From Methylobacter luteus IMV-B-3098 (lineage in GTDB: Bacteria; Pseudomonadota; Gammaproteobacteria; Methylococcales; Methylomonadaceae), in contig NZ_KE386569.1 of assembly GCF_000427625.1 (NCBI RefSeq), positions 3,856,313-3,880,312 on the forward strand: a stretch of DNA of 24,000 nucleotides, written 5' to 3'. The translations under genes and the position numbers were made by a program. This document shows, one piece after another, positions 2,071-24,000 of the stretch (its first letter is position 1; each line of letters opens with the position of its first letter). The notes beneath the pieces are model-generated. The model saw nothing but the letters and a program-made list of their open reading frames with translations. It did not search any database and was not told the DNA's origin.

Positions 2071-3615
2071 ATGGCAAACCGATCGATTCCGGGGTTTTAT
2101 GGAAAATTGCCGGTCCTTGGCGATTTTATTTCGCGCCGGCTTTCGCGCGAGTTTATCAATCCGTGGGATAAATGGCTGCAAAGCGCCATGGCGGCAAGCC
2201 AGCAGCAGCTCGGCGAGCACTGGCTGAAGGCTTACTTATCGAGTCCGGTCTGGCGTTTCGCATTGAGTCCGGGCCTGTGCGGCCATACCGGCTGGCTTGG
2301 CGTGCTGATGCCCAGCGTTGACCGGGTGGGGCGTTATTTCCCGTTGACGCTGGCATTGCCGGCGCCGCCGGATATCAATCTGTCCGATCTGTTCATAACC
2401 AATAACCATTGGTATGCGGAAGCCGAATCAATTGCGCTGACGGCGCTTGAAGAAAATCTCGATCTGAACGGTTTCGATAGTCTGTTGAATACCCTTCCTT
2501 CAATCAGGAGGCCAGAAATTCGAACCGGCGACAGAACCCTGCAATGGAATGATGATTCGGCTAAAAAAGCCCTCTGCATCGACATTGATCATGCGGGCCC
2601 GGCCGAAGAGGCATTAGCGGATTTAAAAACTGATTTGCTGGATGTTTTTACGTCCGGCTACAGCTTGTGGGCGACGCTCGGTTCCGAGCACATCAAGCCT
2701 TTTTTGTTAGGCTGCGACGGGCTACCGCCGGTGAGTGCGTTTGTTGGACTGCTTTCCGGCGATATGCCGCCCCGAGGCTGGCAGCTTGATAAAACCACCC
2801 TGTCGAGCACTGTTGAAGCCGTTGATCCGGATAAGACGCTGCCGCCCAGGCGTATCAATAATCACCCAGGCAGCAGGGGCTCCGCTTCCGGGCAAGGCGG
2901 CCCGGACCCTAGATGGCGGTCGTTTGCCAGAACCGATGTGGGGCTGCGCCGGAAATGCAATGAGGATGCGGTATTGGACCGTCCGCAGGCCGGCCTATGG
3001 GCGGTAGCGGACGGCATGGGAGGACATCAGGCCGGCGATGTGGCAAGCCGGATGATTGTTGAAGCGTTGAGCAAGCTGGAACTTTCAGGCGATCTGGAAA
3101 CATCGATAAAAAAAACCGACGCCTGCCTGAAACAAGTCAATGATGATCTGCGCGATCTGGCGGAAAGCCAGTTCGACAAGCAAATTGTCGGCAGCACGAT
3201 CGTAGCGCTAATAGCGGGCGATCAACGGTTCGCTTATCTATGGGCCGGCGACAGCCGCCTCTATCGGTTGAGGCATCGGCAACTGGTGCAGTTGACCGTA
3301 GACCATTGCGAAGATCAGACATATCCTGGCAACAATCCGATGCCGGCCGACAGACCGCTGAAACAGACGAATGTCATCACGCGCGCGCTTGGTGCTGACG
3401 ACGATTTAGCGCTGGACCGCGGAACCGTTGACGTACAGCCGGGCGATATTTATCTGCTCAGCAGCGACGGGTTGGACAAAGAGGTTAGCTTTCAGGAAAT
3501 TGAGACTATACTTAATGCCAATGATTATGAGGCCAGCGTGAAGGCTTTGGTTGATTTGACGCTGGAGCGCGGCGCTCGCGATAACGTCTCGATTGTGGCG
3601 ATTGAAATCTTATAA
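2071..3615 (+). CDS. tagF: TagF (DUF2094) N-terminal domain fused to a PP2C-type Ser/Thr phosphatase (PppA-like) C-terminal domain
   Basis: The N-terminus carries the TagF signature GFYGKLPVLGDFISRRL...WLGVLMPSVDRVGRYFPLTLA. A Pro/Gly-rich linker occupies about aa 240-290. The C-terminus has PP2C motifs RKCNEDA, AVADGMGGHQAGDVAS, WAGDSRLY, LSSDGL and GARDNVSIV. The start is translationally coupled to tssM. Confidence 0.9.
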   Translation: MANRSIPGFYGKLPVLGDFISRRLSREFINPWDKWLQSAMAASQQQLGEHWLKAYLSSPVWRFALSPGLCGHTGWLGVLMPSVDRVGRYFPLTLALPAPPDINLSDLFITNNHWYAEAESIALTALEENLDLNGFDSLLNTLPSIRRPEIRTGDRTLQWNDDSAKKALCIDIDHAGPAEEALADLKTDLLDVFTSGYSLWATLGSEHIKPFLLGCDGLPPVSAFVGLLSGDMPPRGWQLDKTTLSSTVEAVDPDKTLPPRRINNHPGSRGSASGQGGPDPRWRSFARTDVGLRRKCNEDAVLDRPQAGLWAVADGMGGHQAGDVASRMIVEALSKLELSGDLETSIKKTDACLKQVNDDLRDLAESQFDKQIVGSTIVALIAGDQRFAYLWAGDSRLYRLRHRQLVQLTVDHCEDQTYPGNNPMPADRPLKQTNVITRALGADDDLALDRGTVDVQPGDIYLLSSDGLDKEVSFQEIETILNANDYEASVKALVDLTLERGARDNVSIVAIEIL

Positions 3616-6935: not shown

Positions 6936-7421
6936 ATGGCTGTAGATATGTTTATTAAAATCGGCGATTTAAAAGGTGAATCGCGCGATAAAACGCACAA
7001 AGATGAGATTGATGTTTTAGCCTGGAGCTGGGGGATGTCGCAATCAGGCACTACACACACAGGCGGCGGCGGCGGCGCGGGCAAAGTCAACGTACAGGAT
7101 ATATCGTTCACCAAATATGTCGATAAGTCTTCCGCGCCTTTGATGATGGCTTGCTGCAACGGCAAGCATTTTACCGATGCTACACTGGTGGTGCGCAAAG
7201 CCGGAGAGACGCCTCTGGAATATATCGTCATTAAGCTGACAGAAGTCATTGTAACCTCTGTCAGCACTGGCGGCAGCGGCGGCGAAGACAGATTGACCGA
7301 AAACGTTACGCTGAACTTCGCCAAGTTTGAATACGCTTATCAGCCTCAAAAAGCCGATGGCGCGAAAGATGGCGGCGTGATTGAGGCGAAATTTAATATC
7401 GCTGAAAACGCTAAAGAGTAA
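6936..7421 (+). CDS. hcp: Hcp (TssD) inner-tube protein
   Basis: 161 aa with the N-terminus MAVDMFIKIGDLKGESRDKTHKDEIDVLAWSWGMSQ, classic for Hcp. It has a strong SD aaggagag, its own upstream gap and a downstream terminator. Confidence 0.93.
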   Translation: MAVDMFIKIGDLKGESRDKTHKDEIDVLAWSWGMSQSGTTHTGGGGGAGKVNVQDISFTKYVDKSSAPLMMACCNGKHFTDATLVVRKAGETPLEYIVIKLTEVIVTSVSTGGSGGEDRLTENVTLNFAKFEYAYQPQKADGAKDGGVIEAKFNIAENAKE

Positions 7422-11875: not shown

Positions 11876-14614
11876 ATGACCGACATCAGTCGCGTGGCCC
11901 TGTTCGGAAAGCTGAACAGCGTATGTTACAAAGCAATAGAAGGCGCTACCGTATTTTGCAAAATGCGCGGCAATCCTTATGTGGAACTGGTGCATTGGCT
12001 GCACCAGATTCTACAGTTGCAGGATTCCGATCTGCATAAAATCATCCGTCAGTTCAATCTCGACCCGTCCCGGCTGGCCAAGGACTTTACCGATGCGCTG
12101 GACCGGCTGCCCAGAGGCTCCACATCCATTTCCGATCTGTCTTCGCACGTTGAGGAAGCCGTCGAGCGCGGCTGGGTTTTCGGCACGCTGATGTTTGGTG
12201 AATCGCAAGTCCGCTCGGGCCATCTGGTCGTCGGCATCCTGAAAACCAAGGGACTGACGCATGGCCTGCAAAGCATCTCCAGGGAATTCGACAAGATCAG
12301 GCCCGATACACTGACCGAGCGCTTTGCCGAAATCGTCAGCGGCTCGCCGGAAGAAGGCCTGCATGCCAGCGACGGCTTTCAGGTCGGCGGCGGCGCTGTG
12401 CCGGGCGAGGCCAGCGGCGCCATGTCGCCGGCGCAGATGGGCAGGCAGGAAGCGCTGAAACAGTTTACGGTCGATCTGACTGAACAGGCGCGGCAAGGCA
12501 AAATGGACCCGATCGTCGGGCGCGACGAGGAAATCCGCCAGGTGATCGACATCCTGATGCGCCGCCGCCAGAACAACCCGATCCTGACCGGCGAGGCCGG
12601 CGTCGGCAAGACCGCCGTGGTCGAAGGCTTCGCCCAGAAAATCGTCGCCGGCGACGTGCCGCCGTCCTTGCGCGATGTGTCGCTGCGCACGCTCGATGTC
12701 GGCCTGCTACAGGCCGGCGCCAGCATGAAGGGCGAGTTCGAAAACCGCCTGCGCCAGGTCATAGAAGAAGTTCAGTCATCGGAAAAGCCGATCATCCTGT
12801 TCATCGATGAAGCCCATACGCTGGTCGGCGCCGGCGGCGCGGCCGGCACCGGCGATGCGGCCAACCTGTTGAAACCGGCACTGGCGCGCGGCACCTTGCG
12901 TACGGTGGCCGCAACGACCTGGGCCGAATACAAGAAACATATCGAAAAAGACCCGGCCCTGACGCGCCGGTTCCAGGTCGTGCAGGTCCATGAACCGAGC
13001 GAGGAAAAAGCCATTCTGATGATGCGCGGCGTGGCTTCGGTCATGGAAAAGCATCATCAGGTGCAGGTGCTCGATGAAGCGCTGGAAGCGGCGGTCAGGC
13101 TGTCGCACCGCTACATTCCGGCCCGCCAGCTGCCGGATAAGTCAGTCAGCCTGCTCGATACGGCATCGGCCCGCGTCGCAATCAGCCAGCATGCCGTACC
13201 GGCCGAGGTGGACGACTGCCGCAAACGCATCGCGGCGCTGGAAACCGAGCTGGCCATCATCGGCCGTGAAAAAGCGGTCGGCATCGATATCAAAGACCGC
13301 GAAACGATTGCGGCTGAAAAGCTCGGCGCGGAAAAAGAGCGCCTGGGCAAACTGGAAGAACGCTGGAATGCCGAGCGCGAACTGGTCAGGAACATACTCG
13401 ACATCCGCAAGCAGCTGCGCGATCAGACCGGCAAAGTGGAAGGCACGGACAGCCCGCTTGAAAAAGCCGCCGACCGGGACCAGATCGCCGAAGCCGGCTC
13501 CACCCCTATCACGGCCGATGTCCCGCGCGCACAGTTGCTGGAGGAACTGAAAGCCTTGCAGGCCAAACTGCACGAACTGCAAGGCGAGACGCCGCTGATT
13601 CTGCCCAGCGTCGATGCGCAGGCCGTCGCGTCCGTGGTCGGCGACTGGACCGGCATCCCGGTCGGCCGCATGGTCAAGAATGAAATCGAAACCATCCTGA
13701 ACCTGGCCGATAACCTGGAACAGCGCATCATCGGCCAGCGCCATGCGCTGGACATGATCGCCAGACGCATCCAGACCTCGCGCGCCGGCCTGGACAATCC
13801 CAGCAAGCCCATCGGCGTCTTCATGCTGGCCGGCACTTCCGGCGTCGGCAAAACCGAAACGGCGCTGGCCTTGGCCGAGGCGCTGTACGGCGGCGAGCAG
13901 AACGTCATCACGATCAACATGAGCGAATACCAGGAAGCGCATACCGTGTCGACCTTGAAAGGCGCGCCTCCGGGCTACGTCGGCTACGGCGAAGGCGGCG
14001 TCCTGACCGAAGCGGTGCGCCGCCGTCCCTACAGCGTCGTGTTACTGGACGAAGTCGAAAAAGCCCATCCCGACGTGCATGAGATTTTCTTCCAGGTCTT
14101 CGACAAGGGCTGGATGGAAGACGGCGAGGGCAGGGTTATCGATTTCAAGAATACGCTGATCCTGCTGACCACGAACGCGGGCACGGACATGATCATGAAC
14201 CTGTGCAAGGACCCCGAACTCATGCCGGAACCAGAAGGCATCGCCAAAGCCTTGCGCGAGCCGCTGCTGAAAGTGTTCCCGCCGGCCTTGCTCGGACGCG
14301 TCGTCGTGATTCCTTACTATCCGCTCAGCGACGGAATGATCGCGGCGATTGCGCGGCTGCAGCTGGGCCGCATCGGAAAACGCATCGCCGAAAGCCATAA
14401 AGTGCCTTTTACTTACGATGATGACGTGGTCAAGCTCATCGCCGAGCGCTGCACGGAGCTGGAAAGCGGCGGCCGAATGATCGACGCGATTTTGACCAAC
14501 ACGGTGCTGCCGACCATCAGCCAGGAATTCCTGCACCGCATGATGGAAGGCAAGCCGATCGAGCGCGTGCATATCAGCGCGCAGGATGGCGAGTTTGGGT
14601 ATGGATTTGAGTGA
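11876..14614 (+). CDS. clpV: ClpV (TssH) AAA+ sheath-recycling ATPase
   Basis: 912 aa with a Clp N-domain, two Walker A motifs (GEAGVGKT and GTSGVGKT), and a coiled-coil middle region. An SD gggggg lies upstream. Its position after tssG is canonical. Confidence 0.93.
14251..14614 (+). repeat. Copy A (intact, inside clpV) of a ~360-nt direct repeat; copy B is at 16486-16840
   Basis: By hand alignment it is colinear with 16486-16840, with about 20 substitutions, one 11-nt indel and one 2-nt indel. The homology ends exactly at the stop codon. Confidence 0.9.
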
Positions 14615-14738
14615 AACCGAGAATGGTGGATGGAAAATGTTCTACTATCAGACCTGTTATATCAGGGTTATGGCATCTTCCAGACGCTTTCAAGCTTCGT
14701 ACTATTTACGATGTAAATGAATCCGTTAGGCATAAAAC

Positions 14739-15767
14739 ATGAAGATTTTTACTGAAGCATATAAAAAAGCGCAAGAAGTCATTGAAAAGAAAGAGTTTTC
14801 AGGCCCTGAATGGCAAAAGTTCCTGAAAGAGGAAGCGAAAATCAAAGGCTTGTTTGGACCGGATGGGTTTAGTACCGCTCATTTTAAAACGCCCGATAAA
14901 ATAAGGAAGAAAATAAATTCCGAGTCAACCAATGCATTGGTCAGATTTATAATTGGCGGCAAAAAAAGCGGTGACGTTGTTTATGAGGCAGCCAATAACA
15001 CGAATGATCTGGCCGGACTGAATGACAGAGCCGCCACACTGAAATTCGTCAAGCATTTATATAGAGCCCAAAAACGGGGTGGGCAGGATGTCTGGATTTA
15101 TTCGCCTCCGAAACAGCACACAGGATGGATTTTTGATGAGATCGCGGGGGGAAAGGAAACGGTTATAGCCAGGCTAAACATGGAAGAAGAACTGTTTTCG
15201 GACACTGACATGAAGAATATGTGCTCGGCACTTTCCCTGGCATTGAAAATATCCGAAGACACCAAAATAAAGCTCGCGGATAAAAGTGACAGCACAAAAA
15301 AAATTATCTGGCGTTGGTTCATGGATCAGGATTGCGGCGAAAAGGAACTCAACGGCGCCATCGCTAAATTGAGCGATGGATTCAAAAAGATTACCGATTG
15401 CTGCAACTCAAACACGCTGGTTTTTACCGATTATCCTGACTGGCGTACCCGTAGAAACACGCTTATGGGCGGCGCGATACCGGGTGGCGAGGGAGGCGGA
15501 TTTCCGATTATTTACATAGAAGGGGCCTTTACCGACCTGGCCAACCGGAGTGGAAATCTTTGGACCTGCGCCCGAACCATTATCCATGAGTTTTCTCATC
15601 ATGAGATCAAAACCAAGGATCATAAGTACAGGCATCAAGGATTAAAACCGGACAAGGCGAAATTGCCCTATGCAAAAGCCATCGATAATGCCGATAGCTG
15701 GGCCTGTTTTGCCGTGGATCTGGCCGGCTATATGCCGGAGTCTGACCGGAACAGTTTTCTTAAATAA
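14739..15767 (+). CDS. Aspzincin/M35-like zinc metallopeptidase-domain protein; candidate T6SS effector
   Basis: Three motifs are present: HEFSH (HExxH, nt 15585-15599), TKDHKY 4 residues later (matches the aspzincin GTxDxxYG third-ligand motif, nt 15612-15629), and NADSWACFA near the C-terminus (resembles the M35 NADSY motif). There is no signal peptide. The gene is AT-rich and is the first gene after clpV. Confidence 0.6.
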   Translation: MKIFTEAYKKAQEVIEKKEFSGPEWQKFLKEEAKIKGLFGPDGFSTAHFKTPDKIRKKINSESTNALVRFIIGGKKSGDVVYEAANNTNDLAGLNDRAATLKFVKHLYRAQKRGGQDVWIYSPPKQHTGWIFDEIAGGKETVIARLNMEEELFSDTDMKNMCSALSLALKISEDTKIKLADKSDSTKKIIWRWFMDQDCGEKELNGAIAKLSDGFKKITDCCNSNTLVFTDYPDWRTRRNTLMGGAIPGGEGGGFPIIYIEGAFTDLANRSGNLWTCARTIIHEFSHHEIKTKDHKYRHQGLKPDKAKLPYAKAIDNADSWACFAVDLAGYMPESDRNSFLK

Positions 15768-16001: not shown

Positions 16002-16481
16002 ATGGAAATTTTTTTGTTTTTTTATCGACATTCTTTAGTGCGCGCTCTGCTTGTGGCAGTAACGCTTTTTATTTTCCTGTATGGACAGGTGAAATATGCG
16101 TGCGCGCAACCAGATGTGGAAACAAGCCTGAATAATTCAGAAGAGGTTAAGGGTATGATGCAAGCTGATAGAATTCCACCCGCGGAAGTAGCGCCTGTCG
16201 TAATAGACGGCATGCGATACGAGGTTGTCCATTGGGGGAAGGAACGGGGTTTGGAGCAGAATGGGGGCTATATCGCTGCAATTGACGTTGCCAGCGGGCA
16301 GGAGCGTTGGCTATTAAAAATTTACGATGTCCAATACGATCCCGTGATGGAAGAGGATGTACAGGATATCTTTATTAAATCCATGACCAAGCCTTTTTTC
16401 AGCAAAAAGTTGAAAATCGTTGATGAGCTTGGCCGAAAGTATATTGTGGATACCACCGATCGATCTATACAACTGGAGTGA
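16002..16481 (+). CDS. Small secreted/periplasmic protein of unknown function; candidate immunity protein
   Basis: It has a hydrophobic N-terminus and an AxA-type cleavage context (LFIFLYGQVKYACA|QPD). There is no SD at the ATG at 16002; the in-frame GTG at 16038 (giving MRALLVAVTLFIF...) is an alternative start. No family was recognised. The stop lies 4 nt before the clpV remnant. Confidence 0.55.
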   Translation: MEIFLFFYRHSLVRALLVAVTLFIFLYGQVKYACAQPDVETSLNNSEEVKGMMQADRIPPAEVAPVVIDGMRYEVVHWGKERGLEQNGGYIAAIDVASGQERWLLKIYDVQYDPVMEEDVQDIFIKSMTKPFFSKKLKIVDELGRKYIVDTTDRSIQLE

Positions 16482-16485
16482 CAGG

Positions 16486-16840
16486 CTTGCGCGAGCCGCT
16501 GCTGGAAGTGTTCCCGCCGGCCTTGCTCGGACGCGTCGTCGTATCCGCTCAGCGACGGGATGATCGCGGCGATTGCGCGGCTGCAGCTGAGCCGCATCGG
16601 AAAACGCATCGCCGAAAGCCATAAAGTGCCGTTTACTTACGATGACGACGTGGTCAAGCTCATCGCCGAGCGCTGCACGGAGCTGGAAAGCGGGGCGGCC
16701 GCATGATCGACGCGATTCTGACCAATACGGTCCTGCCGGCCATCAGCCAGGAATTCCTGCACTGCATGATGGAAGGCAAGCCGGTTGAGCGCGTGCACGT
16801 CAGCGTACAGGACGGAGAGTTTGGGTATGGGTTTGAATAA
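16486..16840 (+). pseudogene. Displaced, frameshifted fragment of the clpV 3' end (corresponds to the last ~120 codons)
   Basis: It aligns to 14251-14614. An 11-nt deletion after 16542 removes gattccttact (clpV 14308-14318). A 2-nt insertion lies within 16691-16703. In the clpV frame a stop is reached at 16622-16624. There is no upstream coding sequence or start. The fragment ends at taa 16838-16840, equivalent to the clpV stop. Confidence 0.9.
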
Positions 16841-17054
16841 ATTCATTCTATTAAAAACGTTATAGGATGATGATATGCCACTGCAAAAATACAAGACCTG
16901 AGCTTTTAGCTCCCCAAAGTCGGTGGGCAGACAGCGCTGCCCATCTTACACGGCTTTAGGTAAGCTCCTCTATGCGGGGATAGCCGGGGTTGATGCACTC
17001 TTCCCACTGTATCATTGGGAGCGTGGTGTCTTAATTAGATAAGGAATTATAAAA

Positions 17055-18014
17055 ATGGTATGGCACGTTAATGATATAGATTCTGCGGTAGCAAACTCGC
17101 AGCCCCTGGTATGTTATCAACAACATGGTCAATACTTTATTGATCCAGCATGGGCGGGCGGAGGCAATAACCCCTTTACGTTAAACCCTGATCAATACAC
17201 AGTAGTATTGATAGCGAAAGTAAATGGCGTATTCTTTGGACGATTCTTAAACAATGGATTGCCTCGCACAATTAGTGAGCCTACCAAACCAATTAATCCT
17301 TCACTAAAGCCTGAACTAGGCATAACGAAGACATCGAAGCAAGCAATTGAAAGAGCAGAAGAAAAAAAGTTAAAGGCTATCAGGCAGTACAAAAAAGATC
17401 AGGTAAGTTACGAAAAGAATTTGAAAAATTATAATAATTATCTTGTACAAGTAAATGCTCAGACTTTTAATCATAGCCATGGCAGCGGGACACATGCGGA
17501 GGATGCTTTTCTTAGCGCTTGGGACGCTGCGGTTAAAAAAGGAACCATCGGTCAGCTAAAGGAACGGTGTAACAACAAGCTCTATGTCACAATCAAATTA
17601 TCGAAATCTCCATGCCAAGTTTGTGCTCCAAAACTCATTGCATTCAAGAAAAAGAGCAACGATATTTTTCTCCGTATTAAGACTCAAGCGATTTATGAAG
17701 GTGACGGGGGTATAAATGTTAATACCTTAGAAATAAAAAAGATGATAGGTGAAGGAATAGCGGTTCGTAGCTGGCATATTCCGTTCCATAGCAATAAACA
17801 TCAAAAAAATGGTGCTAAAACGAAATCGGGTATGCTACATGAACTCTCCGGCTGGGCATTCGATGAGGATGACGCATTTCACAAGTTGTTGCTTGAAGAT
17901 TTAAACATAAAGAAGGCTAAATTCGATAATAAAATGGCAAAGGGTGCAAGTTCCTATGCGCCAGAGAATCTAGAGCAAAGATATAAAGAGCTATCAAGAA
18001 ATTATAAAGGGTGA
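17055..18014 (+). CDS. Zinc-dependent deaminase-superfamily protein (HAE...PCxxC); candidate nucleic-acid deaminase toxin/T6SS effector
   Basis: H147-A-E149 (nt 17493-17501) sits in GTHAEDAFLSAW. P186-C-Q-V-C190 (nt 17610-17624) sits in NKLYVTIKLSKSPCQVCAPKLIAF. The beta-strand-then-PCxxC-helix context matches TadA and AID/APOBEC-type cores, with 36 residues between the motifs. SD aagga lies upstream, and the gene is about one-third GC by spot count. Confidence 0.7.
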   Translation: MVWHVNDIDSAVANSQPLVCYQQHGQYFIDPAWAGGGNNPFTLNPDQYTVVLIAKVNGVFFGRFLNNGLPRTISEPTKPINPSLKPELGITKTSKQAIERAEEKKLKAIRQYKKDQVSYEKNLKNYNNYLVQVNAQTFNHSHGSGTHAEDAFLSAWDAAVKKGTIGQLKERCNNKLYVTIKLSKSPCQVCAPKLIAFKKKSNDIFLRIKTQAIYEGDGGINVNTLEIKKMIGEGIAVRSWHIPFHSNKHQKNGAKTKSGMLHELSGWAFDEDDAFHKLLLEDLNIKKAKFDNKMAKGASSYAPENLEQRYKELSRNYKG

Positions 18015-18114: not shown

Positions 18115-18194
18115 ATGAGTCGCCCACTTCGGCTAGAGTTTGCAGGCGTTTGTATCATGTAACCTCTCGGGGCAATGAGGAAAAGCCAATTTAG
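18115..18194 (+). pseudogene. N-terminal remnant of an IS200/RAYT-like Y1 transposase (COG1943-type), frameshifted and truncated
   Basis: The ATG at 18115 gives MSRPLRLEFAG. After a 1-nt frame slip near 18148-18150 the sequence reads LYHVTSRGNEEKPI and then stops at 18192-18194. PLR(I/L)E(F/Y)xGAxYHVxxRGN is the conserved N-terminus of this transposase family as I remember it. The remainder of the gene is absent. Confidence 0.5.
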
Positions 18195-18275
18195 TCAGCA
18201 TACAGGATCGGAAATATCCGGGTTTCTCACCATAATTTACAAGCTTTTATTACCATTTTTTGAGGGCTTACATTC

Positions 18276-19286
18276 ATGCCGCATTTTGAAAACAGCTTTA
18301 ACCCAAACACTGATGTCATTTACGGAACAGGACTCTGGATTCATATTTATCTCTACAATTATTATTTCAGATGGCCGTACGGGTACCCCGAGATCAGGAA
18401 AGACGACCTGAGATTAAGCGTGAAGTTTCCAAAGGGAGAATACGAGTCGCAGATGGCTGCCGCGCATGATAGATACGGGCTCAACGTCATAAACCTGTAT
18501 AACGAGCCAATTACCCCAAAAAGCTTCAATGTCAGCAACGACAAAAAAGTGGGCAAGCCGAATTTCGGACAGGTAAACCAAAAAGATAAAACCACGGAAA
18601 AATTAGCCCAAGATTATTTTGACAGCCTTGTAGACTGCAAGCATTACGGGCCCGAGTCAGTCGAGGGGCAGATCACTGAACGCCTGATACGGTCTTTGAA
18701 AAAATATCAGGATAGCAACTCATTGAATTTTAGTCAGAATCTATCGGGCAGAGGGTCGAAGAAGGTTGCGTTTGATCTTTATGATGTATGCATCAGGCGA
18801 TCCTGCAAATTTGGAATATATTATTTCACGGGCATCAAGAGTGCGAAATTGCATTATATTCTCGATGAGATGGATATTGGTGCCATAGTGAATAAAAGCA
18901 CAATGAAAAATGAAACGACTCAAAAGAGCAAGGTTCCAATTTGCACCTCGGAAGTCCGCTATATTTTTCGCCACTGGAATTCCTTGCGAAACGGTTCGGT
19001 ATATTTTTATCTAGACTTCCAGTTGTGCCCCTCTCCTTGGGAACATGACAAATGGAAGCAGCATTTTCCGGATTGGGCTAGATATGCAGAGTCCCGGGTC
19101 CAAAAATACCGCAAGCAGATACTGGCCGGTATGAATAACCTTGCGATTCTAAATAGATTTGATGAGTGTTCAGATGCTTTTACTCAATCGCCGAATGCTA
19201 TGAATGCAAAGAAGGTAATCAACGCTTTCCATGATTTACCCGTTAATTTGGTGAACAGCCCATCCGATGATACGGCCAAGATCTAG
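18276..19286 (+). CDS. Hypothetical 336-aa cytoplasmic protein (no family recognised); possible immunity protein or second effector
   Basis: It is a long uninterrupted AT-rich ORF with SD gaggg about 10 nt upstream. There is no signal peptide or TM segment, and I could identify no catalytic motif. Confidence 0.55.
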   Translation: MPHFENSFNPNTDVIYGTGLWIHIYLYNYYFRWPYGYPEIRKDDLRLSVKFPKGEYESQMAAAHDRYGLNVINLYNEPITPKSFNVSNDKKVGKPNFGQVNQKDKTTEKLAQDYFDSLVDCKHYGPESVEGQITERLIRSLKKYQDSNSLNFSQNLSGRGSKKVAFDLYDVCIRRSCKFGIYYFTGIKSAKLHYILDEMDIGAIVNKSTMKNETTQKSKVPICTSEVRYIFRHWNSLRNGSVYFYLDFQLCPSPWEHDKWKQHFPDWARYAESRVQKYRKQILAGMNNLAILNRFDECSDAFTQSPNAMNAKKVINAFHDLPVNLVNSPSDDTAKI

Positions 19287-19485
19287 CCGATTATGGATAA
19301 ACATAAGCGCTCCTATACTGATATTCTCAAGAAATAAATGTCGGCAAGCTTCCATTGATGGTTCAATAGCGTCCCGAAGTCATGCTGCAGAATTCAAAAC
19401 GGATTAGCGTTATTACGCAAGCCGGGATGGTTGATAGGCAGAATGTGACCAACCATGCATTTTCTTTTCCAGCGGAATACTTGAG

Positions 19486-19512
19486 CAGGACGGGGTTTAT
19501 AACCCCGTCCTG
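19486..19512. other. Perfect 12-bp inverted repeat (hairpin) in a non-coding border region
   Basis: caggacggggtt (19486-19497) pairs with aaccccgtcctg (19501-19512) around loop tat. It lies 200 nt downstream of the last cassette ORF and has no convincing T-tract. Confidence 0.4.
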
Positions 19513-19915
19513 AATGTTTCGAAACCGTTCTCCGGTGGTAATTACAATTCTAAAGGATGAGGTTTCCCACCGGCGCAATGTTTGCGATGCTCGATATCCG
19601 CGCGGAAACTCCGGAAATCGAGAAATTCACTATTGGGAATGAAGCGCTTCGGGATCGGCTATGTTTCGACCGCTGCGACGGGGGGGATGCCTCATCGCGC
19701 TCGAAGCAGCTGATTGACTTACTCTCCCTGCCATCACTATGCCTGTTTTGGCATCTTGTCGTCGGGCAGGACTATAAGTGGCATCAACCTGGGAAGTGCA
19801 AGTCAGGAATCTAAGCAATAAGCCATAATCCATAGTGTGCTATCAAGATTAACTATAATTCACCGAACTAAGCAACCAGTAAATCTGGTCAGGTAGATGC
19901 GAGAATTGGAATATT

Positions 19916-21265
19916 ATGAACCGCAATAAACGACGGCTTGCAGCCAAGCAAAGCAAGCGGCAAAAACAGGCCAATCCGGGCAGCGCCTTACCATCGGCGA
20001 TCAGCCTGCATCAAAAGGGGCAGCTGGGCGAGGCCGAGAAAATCTATCGGTCGATTCTGGCAAGGCAGCCGGATAATCCCGACGCGCTGCATTTCCTCGG
20101 CGTGCTGCTGCATCAGACCGGCCAAAGCGACAAGGCCATCGCCAGCGTTAATCAGGCGCTCCGAATCAATCCATCCTACCTGGACGCCTGCAATAATCTG
20201 GGCAATATCTATAAAGAGACAGGCGACATGCAAAAGGCGGCCGAGACGTATCGAAAGGTGATTGACATGGCGCCCGACCATGCCGGTGCCTGCAACAATC
20301 TGGGTGTGGTGCTCAGAAATTTGGGCGCATACGAGGAATCGGTGCGCGCATTGCTGAAAGCCGCCGAGCTAAGCCCGGACAATGCCGATGTTTTCCAGAA
20401 TCTCGGCAATAGCTATCAGGAGCAGGACGAATACGACAAGGCGGCCGTTGCCTACCAGCAAGCCATTGCCATAAAACCGCACCACAAATACGCCTATGAG
20501 AGTTTATGGCGGATGATGTTAAAAACGGGCCAGCCCGATCAAGCCATGGATGTTTTGCGACGCTGGATCCAGGCTGACCCGGAAAATCCGATTGCCAGGC
20601 ACCATTTTTCCGCCTGTATGGGCGAAAATATTCCCGACCGGGCTTCACAGGCTTACATACAGGACATCTTCGATAAGTTTGCGGCCAGCTTCGACACAGT
20701 GCTGAACAGGCTCGATTATCGGGCGCCCGAGTTGGTCACGCAGGCCGTATCCGTTCTGTTCCCCGACCCCCGACCAGCCCTCAGGATGCTGGACGCAGGC
20801 TGCGGAACCGGACTGTGCGGACCTTTGTTGCGGCCTTATGCCCGCATGCTGGTCGGGGTTGACCTGTCTTCCGGCATGCTGAACAAAGCCAGGGGGCGTA
20901 ACCTCTATGACGACCTGGTCGAAGCCGATCTGGTGGACTATTTAAGCCGATACGAAGCCGCTTTCGATGTGATCGTCTCCGCTGATACACTGGTTTACTT
21001 TGGCGAGCTCGGCCCTTTTCTACAGGCTGCCGCGCGTGCTCTGGCTTCAGCGGGCTGCCTGGTTTTTACTGTGGAAAAAAGCGACGAAAACAGCGGCAAC
21101 GGCTTTAAATTGAACCCTCATGGCCGTTATGCGCATACGCATGAGTATATAAAGACTACCTTGACGGCGTGGGGCTTCGATATGCGTGCGGCGGACACGG
21201 TTGTGCTGCGCAAGGAGGCCGGTCAACCCGTGACTGGCTTGCTGGTGACGGCGACCTTAAAATAA
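19916..21265 (+). CDS. TPR-repeat protein fused to a class I SAM-dependent methyltransferase domain
   Basis: The N-terminal half has repeated TPR-like units (AEKIYRSILARQPDNPDALHFLGVLL, etc.). The C-terminal half has SAM motif I LDAGCGTGLCG plus VGVDLS and FDVIVSADTLVYFG. Confidence 0.8.
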   Translation: MNRNKRRLAAKQSKRQKQANPGSALPSAISLHQKGQLGEAEKIYRSILARQPDNPDALHFLGVLLHQTGQSDKAIASVNQALRINPSYLDACNNLGNIYKETGDMQKAAETYRKVIDMAPDHAGACNNLGVVLRNLGAYEESVRALLKAAELSPDNADVFQNLGNSYQEQDEYDKAAVAYQQAIAIKPHHKYAYESLWRMMLKTGQPDQAMDVLRRWIQADPENPIARHHFSACMGENIPDRASQAYIQDIFDKFAASFDTVLNRLDYRAPELVTQAVSVLFPDPRPALRMLDAGCGTGLCGPLLRPYARMLVGVDLSSGMLNKARGRNLYDDLVEADLVDYLSRYEAAFDVIVSADTLVYFGELGPFLQAAARALASAGCLVFTVEKSDENSGNGFKLNPHGRYAHTHEYIKTTLTAWGFDMRAADTVVLRKEAGQPVTGLLVTATLK

Positions 21266-22513: not shown

Positions 22514-24000
22514 TCAGAACAGGAGGGACGGCGTTGTCTTTTTGTGCATGTAGGCATAATTGACAACGATTTTCCAGCTCTCGCCGGCACCGAAGTTAAT
22601 AGAATCCCAGGCGGCAATCTTAGAGATCTCGGTATTGCCTTCGATGAAGGAATAATAGCCAATGCTGTCGTCGTCAATCAGCATCAGCCTGCCGAAAGCC
22701 TGTAGCGACGGCGAGTGATTGCTGGCCGGGTCAAGAAACAGGTTGCTGGCGATATATTGGGGCGATTCGTCAAATATGATCAGCCCATCGCTGCGCATGA
22801 TCCAGACATTCCTGGGATGAGCCTCGGATTTGGAACCAAGCGGAAAAAAATCAGGCAGCACTCTTTCCGGGTACAGGCGGGCTTCGAGGCAATAGACAAT
22901 AGGGCTGTCTTGCGGCACGGGCACGCGATAGCTCAGCATCAGTCGCTCGTTTTCTATCTGGACGATAGGTTCCTTATGCTGTTGAACATAATTGCCGCCG
23001 TCTTTGCTAAAAACATTCGGGATTTCGGACGCTTTCCGAAGCGAGAAAGATTCGAATGTCGGATACCGGCTGTGCAGTTGAGCAAGCAGTTGCCGCGTCG
23101 CATCCGAATCCGGCCCGTCGATTTGAGCCGCGACCTGATTAAGGTCCGAGAGCAAGCGGCTGGTTCCGGCCGAGATGGCATGAGCTATCGCCCGCGCCTG
23201 CTGTTGCGATTGCTCGCCGAAAGCCGTCACCATGACCAGGGATTCCTCAGCTTGTATTTTGGCCTGTTCCATCTGTCGGGCATAATAAACCGAAAAGCCC
23301 GCCCCGCCGATGACAGTTATCGCCAGCAAACCGGCCATAACGATCATGGATTTGTTTTGTGACACAAAACGGCGCAGCAACTCCTGTTTCGAATAGGCAT
23401 AGGTATTCACCATGCGCCCCTCCCGGAAGGCTTTCAATTGGCCAGCCAGTTCGCCGGCATTGGCGAATCGTTCGTCAGCCTTCTTGTGCATGGCTTTCTC
23501 GCAGATGGCGACCAGTTCGGGCGGCGCGGTTGGGTTGATCTTTTTTGCCGAAGGGGATGCCTTGCCGGCCTCGATCTGCTTCTGGATGTCGGGCAACGGG
23601 CCGCGATAAGGCAGTTCGCCGGTGATTATCCGGTACAGAATGACACCAAGGCTATAGACATCACTGGCCTTGCCGTCAATGCCTTTGAATTGTTCAGGCG
23701 CCATATAAGCCGGCGTTCCCAGGACTTCGGACGTCGTAGTGTCGCTCAGCGTGTGGCGCTGGTGCGTCAGAACTTCGCGATAGAAATGGGTGTTATCGTC
23801 ATCATCGAGAATCTGCGCCAGGCCCCAGTCGAGAATAATCGTTTCGCCAAAGCTGCCGCCAATGATATTGCCGGGTTTCAGGTCCCGATGAATAACGCCT
23901 TTGGAATGGGCGTAGGCCACTGTGTCGCAAACATCGATCAGGATATTCAGCAACTTGATGCGCCGCGCGAATGCCATCCCGACTTCCGTTTGCGCGCACT
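22514..24000 (-). CDS. Transmembrane Hanks-type Ser/Thr protein kinase with a C-terminal extracytoplasmic domain; N-terminus lies beyond the window end
   Basis: The frame is open to nt 24000, so the M at 23977 is internal. Kinase motifs are HRDLKPGNI, DWGLA (a DFG variant) and GTPAYMAPE. One TM segment (MIVMAGLLAITVIGGAGFSVYY) maps to about nt 23282-23347. A domain of about 255 aa with no recognised family follows, outside the membrane. Confidence 0.85.
   Translation of the reverse strand, partial: CAQTEVGMAFARRIKLLNILIDVCDTVAYAHSKGVIHRDLKPGNIIGGSFGETIILDWGLAQILDDDDNTHFYREVLTHQRHTLSDTTTSEVLGTPAYMAPEQFKGIDGKASDVYSLGVILYRIITGELPYRGPLPDIQKQIEAGKASPSAKKINPTAPPELVAICEKAMHKKADERFANAGELAGQLKAFREGRMVNTYAYSKQELLRRFVSQNKSMIVMAGLLAITVIGGAGFSVYYARQMEQAKIQAEESLVMVTAFGEQSQQQARAIAHAISAGTSRLLSDLNQVAAQIDGPDSDATRQLLAQLHSRYPTFESFSLRKASEIPNVFSKDGGNYVQQHKEPIVQIENERLMLSYRVPVPQDSPIVYCLEARLYPERVLPDFFPLGSKSEAHPRNVWIMRSDGLIIFDESPQYIASNLFLDPASNHSPSLQAFGRLMLIDDDSIGYYSFIEGNTEISKIAAWDSINFGAGESWKIVVNYAYMHKKTTPSLLF

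Follow-up and report, generated by a model that had tools for sequence, protein, structure and literature searches.

The locus analyzed here raises the question of what an AT-rich gene, located just behind a displaced copy of the 3' end of clpV in a type VI secretion system (T6SS) region of Methylobacter luteus IMV-B-3098, might do for that system. The gene (17055-18014, + strand) lies within a 24,000-nucleotide stretch of contig NZ_KE386569.1 (the whole stretch is called the window hereafter) and encodes a protein of 319 aa, which an initial annotation, made from the letters alone, had proposed to be a T6SS-linked deaminase toxin. The fold of this protein, its clade, the conservation of its catalytic residues, the history of the cassette that carries it, and the recurrent linkage of its relatives to injection systems were all computed here. 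Our results indicate that the protein is almost certainly an AID/APOBEC-fold deaminase with an intact active site, and that it is probably an effector of an injection system. The combined reading, i.e., a stand-alone AID/APOBEC-clade polynucleotide cytosine deaminase used as a T6SS cargo effector, is the one that we favor, with moderate confidence.

Fold, clade, and active site of the 319-aa protein

The open reading frame (ORF) begins with ATG, is preceded by a putative ribosome-binding site read by eye (AAGGA), and encodes both GTHAEDAFL and LYVTIKLSKSPCQVCAPKLIAF. The ORF, the quoted peptides, the numbering of H147, E149, C187 and C190, and the 36-residue spacing given by the initial annotation were all correct on re-reading. 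The two active-site elements, as read from the sequence, are:

17493-17501, + strand: H147-A148-E149, with the zinc ligand H147 and the catalytic glutamate E149, opening helix 2
17610-17624, + strand: P186-C187-Q-V-C190 (PCQVC), with C187 and C190 as the cysteine zinc ligands, opening helix 3

There are 36 residues between E149 and P186, and among the 65 stop-free segments (six frames, 100 aa or longer) of the whole window, the corresponding pattern ([HC][AV]E-x20-45-PCxxC) was found in the 17055-18014 ORF alone. The chance of a 319-codon open frame at 39% GC was estimated from base composition at about 1e-9. In an alignment of the 35 sequences of the family, P186, C187 and C190 are invariant, as are K181, R207 and K209, and H147 and E149 are conserved in at least 90% of the sequences together with K55, G62, F64 and E263. 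By analogy with the clade described below, the protein is most likely an active zinc-dependent cytosine deaminase. A single database record of the identical protein was found, a hypothetical protein of Methylobacter luteus.

Profile searches agree on the clade to which the protein belongs. Specifically, five Pfam families scored above their gathering cut-offs, namely APOBEC_N (40.8 bits, cut-off 25), SNAD4 (36.7), NAD1 (36.5), NAD2 (34.1) and APOBEC2 (31), and no other deaminase family was matched at E<=1, nucleotide deaminases of the dCMP/dCTP or CDA type included; APOBEC_N was also matched by 34 of the 35 family members. Since the scores are similar across several sub-families (34-41 bits), the protein appears to belong to no single one of SNAD4, NAD1 and NAD2. 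When the family profile was searched against all PDB sequences, AID/APOBEC chains made up 59 of the 60 matches listed (APOBEC3G, or A3G, 8e-21; A3H 5e-11; AID 1e-5; APOBEC1 4e-5; APOBEC2 6e-5), the remaining one being a weak designed coiled coil, and no TadA, CDA, DddA or SsdA chain was matched at E<=10. Pairwise profile alignment (hhalign) gave a probability of 95% for human AID vs. 5.5% for Escherichia coli TadA (both reference sequences entered by hand), and the TadA alignment was confined to 21 columns around PCxxC. NCBIfam, PADLOC and PHROGs returned nothing meaningful for the deaminase (from PADLOC, only a sub-threshold DpdA match over the insert described below; E 0.003, 14 bits).

Structure prediction is consistent with this assignment. 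While AlphaFold2 (AF2) gave an unusable model from the single sequence (mean predicted local distance difference test score, pLDDT, of 36), using the family alignment as input resulted in a confident one (pLDDT 84.9; predicted TM-score, pTM, 0.78), and the best 50 Foldseek matches of this model in the PDB were all APOBEC3/AID, with probability 1.00 and target-normalised TM-scores of 0.5-0.66 in the single-domain rows. In the model, a helix at 148-162 has HAE at its start, and a strand at 176-182 is followed by PCxxC and a helix at 190-200, then by a strand at 204-210, a helix at 219-232, a strand at 236-239, and helices at 242-252 and 274-295. That is, the predicted topology is that of the helix-4 division of the deaminase superfamily, to which AID/APOBEC belongs, with a helix between strands 4 and 5 and at least two extra helices after strand 5. 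As to the shared derived features that Iyer et al. list for the clade, an 8-residue loop (211-218) and a conserved W240 after strand 5 are present in the model and in the alignment. No clear D-aromatic motif was recognized by eye in the window protein (which has WHIP); WD or WN is found in some relatives.

Hence, the zinc deaminase with intact HAE...PCxxC motifs put forward initially is borne out by Pfam, the PDB profile search and AF2/Foldseek alike, and the profile and structure searches suggested at the time as a check recover a deaminase fold with AID/APOBEC as its best match. The accompanying label, "TadA/AID-APOBEC-like", holds for its AID/APOBEC half, on the strength of the five Pfam families and 59 of the 60 PDB matches, but not for its TadA half, which the hhalign result and the lack of any TadA chain at E<=10 rule out. 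Likewise, the clade had been regarded as not assignable by eye, whereas the profiles and Foldseek place the protein in the AID/APOBEC clade. Membership in the groups of DddA (BaDTF1, SCP1.201-like) or SsdA (BaDTF2, DYW-like) was also considered and rejected, given that neither has a Pfam match at E<=1 or a PDB chain at E<=10, both are absent from the best 50 Foldseek matches, and strands 4 and 5 of the model are separated by a helix.

Outside the active site, three parts of the protein can be told apart:

17055-17255, + strand: residues 1-67, which supply helix 1 (8-13) and the first two strands (51-56 and 59-65) of the deaminase fold
17256-17480, + strand: residues 68-142, a Lys-rich, lineage-variable insert between strand 2 and the HAE helix
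17874-18011, + strand: residues 274-319, C-terminal helices at 274-295, 298-301 and 306-317 (AF2)

About 125 N-terminal residues had been described as unrelated to the deaminase core, which applies only to the insert at about 68-142; a separate, unrelated domain covering the first 125 residues is ruled out by the family alignment, the AF2 model and the hhalign alignment to AID. Indeed, residues 1-67 are conserved across all members (W.IN.DL...PIV...NPF.L...TV.L.AKVNG..FGRF.N), FGRFLN of the window protein aligns to FGYLRN of AID in hhalign, and the AF2 block means are 79-95 for residues 1-60 and 91-94 for residues 1-20. The insert forms a long helix in the model (95-134), carries 14 Lys and Arg vs. 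7 Asp and Glu, and is absent from three members in the family alignment (P0008, P0010, P0011) and longer in three others (P0006, P0007, P0009). The canonical spacing between the catalytic Glu and the PC of AID/APOBEC proteins is about 23-28 residues, and the slightly long spacing in the window protein is accounted for by an extra short helix at 164-171 of the AF2 model. The C-terminal tails of relatives are variable, often long and often coiled-coil, and the C-terminal helices of the window protein may serve as a loading or partner-binding region. A family-specific motif, TK.GQ.HEL (17817-17846, residues 255-264, with T256, H262, E263 and L264), follows strand 5; to our knowledge, it is not a feature of AID/APOBEC proteins.

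Links of the family to contractile injection systems and history of the cassette

The family appears to be very rare in bacteria. When 1.84 billion cluster representatives were searched exhaustively with HMMER, only 28 relatives (clusters) were returned, and those whose source was looked up all came from metagenomes or metagenome-assembled genomes (MAGs). In a set of 5.8 billion proteins, a first alignment-based search saturated on low-complexity tails and returned 4 matches, and a core-trimmed alignment returned 12. The full family alignment was too divergent for deriving a search pattern, and a family-pattern scan of GTDB representative genomes recovered no copy, nor did it recover the source genome. 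No members were found in phage, plasmid and viral-contig collections (by tblastn for the phage set) or in any of 80 clpV loci from other species. The N-termini of five relatives (P0002, P0003, P0005, P0022 and P0024), of which the first three are among the closest, are extended by basic stretches in which KKQK(L), a motif resembling a nuclear localisation signal, recurs, and P0004 has a poly-Asn tract. The contig of P0002 (L009) also encodes an LssY_C protein and a fragment of an IS66 insertion sequence (IS), and therefore at least this relative is bacterial.

The T6SS link that had been proposed from the window extends beyond it, as relatives are found beside hcp, after another clpV remnant, or fused to an eCIS_core domain (eCIS, extracellular contractile injection system), and it is this recurrence next to injection-system genes elsewhere that raises the link above mere adjacency. 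Specifically, the relatives P0007/P0031 share 31-34% identity with the window protein along its entire length, as well as the same kind of insert. In at least three independent contigs, their genes start 13 nt downstream of hcp; the ends of four shorter contigs fall within hcp, and one further contig retains just its last 46 codons. The Hcp encoded there is 63% identical to the window Hcp. The eight contigs that carry P0007/P0031 (L010, L011, L013-L018) all end exactly 84 bp past the stop codon, an assembly break shared by all samples, as would be expected if a repeat or polymorphic region started there.

A second relative, P0036, keeps HAE and PCxxC and is encoded by a gene of 33% GC in a T6SS cluster (locus L103) that is syntenic with the window and whose ClpV is 82% identical to that of the window. 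The gene order at this locus is clpV, an Ntox11 toxin with a 306-aa gene, a degenerate clpV 3' remnant and P0036, followed by remnants of a TPR-methyltransferase gene, an intact TPR-methyltransferase gene (46% identical between the two loci), DUF6931, PAAR, VgrG, DUF6861 and tssJ. Therefore, two divergent family members share one slot, each behind its own displaced clpV end. The TPR-methyltransferase remnants between P0036 and the intact copy (11307-11623 of L103) are internally deleted. Remnants of both neighboring core genes thus border the deaminase cassette of L103, a pattern that import of the whole clpV'-deaminase-TPR' segment by recombination would produce. Genes for a uracil-DNA glycosylase and an ExoIII-like AP endonuclease lie immediately after this T6SS cluster (19175-20568, - strand); these uracil repair genes could reflect self-protection or be a coincidence.

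A third link comes from P0022, a single protein that combines an eCIS_core domain at its N-terminus (3e-26) with an F-box and the deaminase, and that is encoded downstream of an IglE_N gene (L012, 1-417 and 737-2515), IglE being a lipoprotein of the Francisella-type T6SS. This fusion and its neighbor suggest delivery into eukaryotic cells, and F-box families are also matched by P0021 and P0024 in Pfam. Overall, about 4 of the roughly 12 family contexts with usable flanks are linked to a contractile injection system, a fraction that, as a rough estimate, is well above the few percent for a random gene.

In the window itself, the T6SS core consists of tssM, tagF-PP2C, tssA, tssB, tssC, hcp (6936-7421), tagJ, tssE, tssF, tssG and clpV, and the region from clpV onward is arranged as follows:

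11876-14614, + strand: clpV (tssH; Pfam AAA_2, AAA_lid_9, ClpB_D2-small), the last core gene and the left anchor of the cassette array
14739-15767, + strand: putative effector of cassette 1, a metallopeptidase of the M35/aspzincin-like type (342 aa; Pfam Aspzincin_M35, 5.3e-15)
16002-16481, + strand: cassette 1 partner of 159 aa with a hydrophobic, signal-like N-terminal segment (no Pfam family)
16483-16841, + strand: displaced clpV 3' remnant (pseudogene fragment), 93.8% identical to 14248-14615
17055-18014, + strand: AID/APOBEC-clade deaminase gene, 319 aa, 212 bp after the clpV remnant
18117-18200, + strand: possible frameshifted N-terminal remnant of an IS200/Y1-type transposase, seen by eye only (MSRPLRLEFAGV / LYHVTSRGNEEKPI)
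18276-19286, + strand: ORF336, no family, 261 bp after the deaminase gene
19916-21265, + strand: TPR-methyltransferase gene (Pfam TPR, Methyltransf_11), which forms the conserved right border of the variable region

The displaced clpV 3' end of the initial annotation is thus real, and it carries an 11-bp deletion and a 2-bp insertion, both frame-breaking. Cassette 1 stops one base before this remnant, and the deaminase gene evidently once lay directly after clpV, until an incoming new clpV 3' end together with cassette 1 pushed the old end downstream; because the remnant is still 94% identical to clpV, this displacement appears to be recent. The slot after clpV is an effector slot, occupied elsewhere by M35 and 159-aa pairs and by the Ntox11 toxin. 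The former pair recurs in three other loci (L020, L024 and L054), in one of them (L024, a Methyloversatilis MAG) directly after clpV and in tandem, and it is this joint recurrence beside clpV elsewhere that makes the pair credible as effector and immunity protein, probably a T6SS peptidase effector and its periplasmic immunity protein. The deaminase gene is an AT-rich cassette that was acquired horizontally, and the AT-richness noted before is evident in its GC content of 0.39 (0.36 at third codon positions, GC3) vs. 0.61 (0.77) for clpV.

The remainder of the island offered few further signals. The 26-aa peptide of the putative transposase remnant matched nothing in Pfam, which leaves its identification unconfirmed, and the roughly 630 bp after ORF336 contain no recognisable gene. 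No convincing promoter was found by a scan of the 212 bp upstream of the deaminase gene, nor any terminator-like site on the + strand, and the promoter/terminator scan of the region returned fewer sites than were found in shuffled sequence. Likewise, nothing was found in the island by Rfam, tRNA and inverted-repeat scans. Elsewhere in the window, a TagF-PP2C phosphatase fusion (2071-3615) and, downstream, a Ser/Thr protein kinase gene (22514-23977, - strand) suggest that the window T6SS is under threonine-phosphorylation control.

Proposed effector role, rival explanations, and possible targets

What we infer beyond the fold and the linkage concerns enzymatic activity, substrate, secretion, loading mode and target. 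By analogy with the clade, H147, C187 and C190 would hold a zinc-bound water and E149 would shuttle the proton. The M. luteus T6SS would export the deaminase as non-covalently loaded cargo (on Hcp, VgrG or PAAR) into a recipient cell, be it a bacterium or a eukaryotic grazer, where cytosine in single-stranded DNA (ssDNA), or less likely in RNA, would be converted to uracil; the uracil would then result in C-to-T mutations, and its excision in abasic sites and breaks.

Several observations weigh against a T6SS effector. About 8 of the roughly 12 usable contexts, judged on the flanks available, lack injection-system genes and instead include IS66, IS4 and IS3 elements, a patatin gene with a DUF4160/DUF2442 toxin-antitoxin pair, and housekeeping genes. 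No conserved immunity gene was found across the family loci, and P0036 has no immunity candidate between it and the TPR gene remnants. At 319 aa, the protein has an estimated mass of about 36 kDa, which exceeds that of effectors classically carried inside the Hcp ring, and effector markers (PAAR, Rhs and similar) were absent in the Pfam scan, in which MIX and FIX motifs were not searched separately. Further, the gene may be poorly expressed, because it has been displaced from clpV and a simple scan found no convincing promoter upstream. Finally, APOBEC3G is reported to be non-toxic in E. coli, unlike DddA (PMC7901873), and the outcome of an APOBEC-like effector may thus be mutation and not death of the recipient.

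Some of these observations can also be read as support for other roles. For instance, the protein might be an intracellular defence enzyme, i.e., a bacterial counterpart of APOBEC3 that hypermutates the ssDNA of invading phages, plasmids and transposons, with its location in the island being incidental. In favor of this, the characterised proteins closest to it are antiviral mutators of ssDNA, the majority of the family is found away from injection-system loci (next to IS66/IS4 elements or the patatin gene with its DUF4160/DUF2442 pair), and the lack of a conserved immunity gene also fits, but PADLOC offered only the sub-threshold DpdA match, the phage, plasmid and viral-contig collections contained no relatives, and the F-box fusions suggest that the proteins act within eukaryotic cells. 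Moreover, the family is tied to contractile injection systems in four independent instances, namely two in the clpV slot, one in the hcp operon, and one through the eCIS_core fusion beside IglE, which is far above the expectation for a gene unrelated to secretion, and we thus regard a defence enzyme as distinctly improbable. We hold a secreted effector that acts on RNA (tRNA, rRNA or mRNA) or on free nucleotides, thereby poisoning translation or nucleotide pools, to be about as improbable. Such an activity would accord with the RNA editing of some AID/APOBEC members (APOBEC1 is among the PDB profile matches), and a different substrate surface could arise from the long spacing, the 75-residue basic insert and TK.GQ.HEL. 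However, ssDNA deaminases (the A3G catalytic domain, A3H, A3F and AID) are the strongest matches in both sequence and structure, and the Pfam scan matched no nucleotide deaminase of the dCMP/dCTP or CDA type at E<=1.

Alternatively, the gene could be a stranded relic, that is, an orphan effector gene displaced by the M35 cassette, unexpressed and simply not yet decayed. This would be consistent with its position behind a clpV pseudogene fragment, with the putative transposase remnant that follows it (by eye, with nothing in Pfam), with the lack of a promoter-like site in the 212 bp upstream, and with the absence of a copy in GTDB representative genomes, which may mean that the gene is strain-specific. 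Nonetheless, the 319-codon frame is intact in DNA of 39% GC, the catalytic and fold-defining residues have been kept, AAGGA is a plausible ribosome-binding site, read-through from upstream genes is possible in view of the lack of a terminator-like site on the + strand, and the 94% identity of the remnant to clpV means that the displacement was recent. Hence, we find a relic very unlikely and favor a T6SS cargo effector.

As for immunity, the earlier proposal of ORF336 as the immunity partner found no support. Relatives of ORF336 were detected neither among the family loci and the 80 clpV loci nor in the metagenome scan, no counterpart of it was found beside other family members (the ORF downstream of P0006 is unrelated), and the putative transposase remnant lies between it and the deaminase gene. 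Pfam and NCBIfam were empty for ORF336, and its matches in PADLOC, PHROGs and PDB all stayed below threshold; its product may be an immunity protein or a second effector, or the gene may be unrelated island cargo. AID/APOBEC-like bacterial toxins have been noted to lack immunity genes and were proposed to be aimed at eukaryotic cells (PMC3239186), and the missing conserved immunity gene, the F-box fusions and the KKQK(L) extensions of the present family fit this pattern of Iyer et al. (PMC3239186). For a free-living methanotroph, protist grazers would be the natural eukaryotic targets under this hypothesis. We consider an antibacterial role, with ORF336 as immunity protein, and an anti-eukaryotic role equally open.

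A more far-reaching version of the latter is that the family represents the free-standing bacterial AID/APOBEC stock, injected by T6SS, Francisella-type T6SS and eCIS into eukaryotes, for example amoebal grazers, as genotoxins that mutate nuclear DNA. We regard this version as unlikely, although, if true, it would explain the F-box fusions, the KKQK extensions resembling nuclear localisation signals, the lack of a conserved immunity gene and the above-threshold similarity to animal AID/APOBEC deaminases at once, and the family would be a living representative of the toxin lineage behind animal AID/APOBEC.

Significance and comparison with known systems

The window protein is of a known kind, a deaminase effector of the AID/APOBEC clade, and a member of no named sub-family. 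What is new is a compact, stand-alone APOBEC-fold protein of 319 aa from a named species with a known T6SS cluster, given that the T6SS deaminase toxins characterised so far (DddA, SsdA and BaDTF3) all belong to the other structural division. A literature search found no publication naming this protein or mentioning Methylobacter in a deaminase context, and no experimental work on toxins of the B3gp45/PSEBR_m1207 type (below). The protein makes it possible to test the idea that the animal AID/APOBEC mutators descended from bacterial toxins, as well as whether ssDNA deamination of the APOBEC type serves as a weapon delivered by injection, and at which cells it is aimed. It is also a possible small scaffold for cytosine base editors, with unexplored sequence-context preferences.

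The deaminase domains of DddA and SsdA form the C-terminus of larger polymorphic toxins, and that of the BaDTF3 member likewise the C-terminus of a larger toxin with an adjacent immunity gene, whereas the window protein is stand-alone, with the fold starting from residue 1, and has no identifiable immunity gene. T6SS deaminase effectors as such are established, including DddA (BaDTF1) of Burkholderia cenocepacia, SsdA (BaDTF2) of Pseudomonas syringae and a BaDTF3 member; like the window protein, DddA and SsdA are T6SS-associated cytosine deaminases used against other cells, and both have adjacent small immunity genes (PMC7901873). In terms of structure, DddA and SsdA fall into the C-terminal-hairpin division (PMC3239186), as opposed to the helix-4 topology of the window protein model.

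Closer in clade are the bacterial AID/APOBEC-like toxins that were predicted in 2011, i.e., B3gp45 of the Wolbachia prophage WOCauB3 and PSEBR_m1207 of Pseudomonas brassicacearum, whose deaminase domains are the C-terminal parts of giant SpvB/RHS-type toxins (PMC3239186), and such bacterial toxins have been proposed as the stock of the eukaryotic AID/APOBECs (PMC5889660). The window family, with about 320 aa, free-standing and linked to hcp and clpV, is set apart from these by their described architecture. The protein also scores above the Pfam gathering cut-offs of SNAD4, NAD1 and NAD2, which are non-classical AID/APOBEC-like deaminases of eukaryotes (Krishnan et al. 2018). Secreted SNADs are thought to act outside the producing cell (PMC5889660), but the window protein has no signal peptide, and its export would be by an injection machine rather than by Sec.

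The cassette array itself resembles the arrays of orphan effector-immunity cassettes found downstream of T6SS core genes (displaced C-terminus arrays of vgrG and rhs type), in which a duplicated 3' end likewise marks successive cassette replacement by homologous recombination; the difference is that the anchor here is clpV rather than vgrG, rhs or PAAR, and the displaced fragment derives from an ATPase gene rather than from a toxin. Finally, compared to vertebrate AID/APOBEC3 (the A3G catalytic domain, A3H, A3F and AID), the window protein shares the fold, the clade, HAE and (S)PCxxC (SKSPC vs. SWSPC in the vertebrate proteins), the helix between strands 4 and 5 and the extra helices past strand 5, and its LRIK...LY segment (strand 4 and loop) aligns with L(S/T)I..ARLY of A3G and AID. 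It differs from these proteins in being bacterial and encoded in a T6SS region, in sharing only 12-19% identity with them in structural alignments, and in having the 75-residue helical insert, TK.GQ.HEL and a different C-terminal tail.

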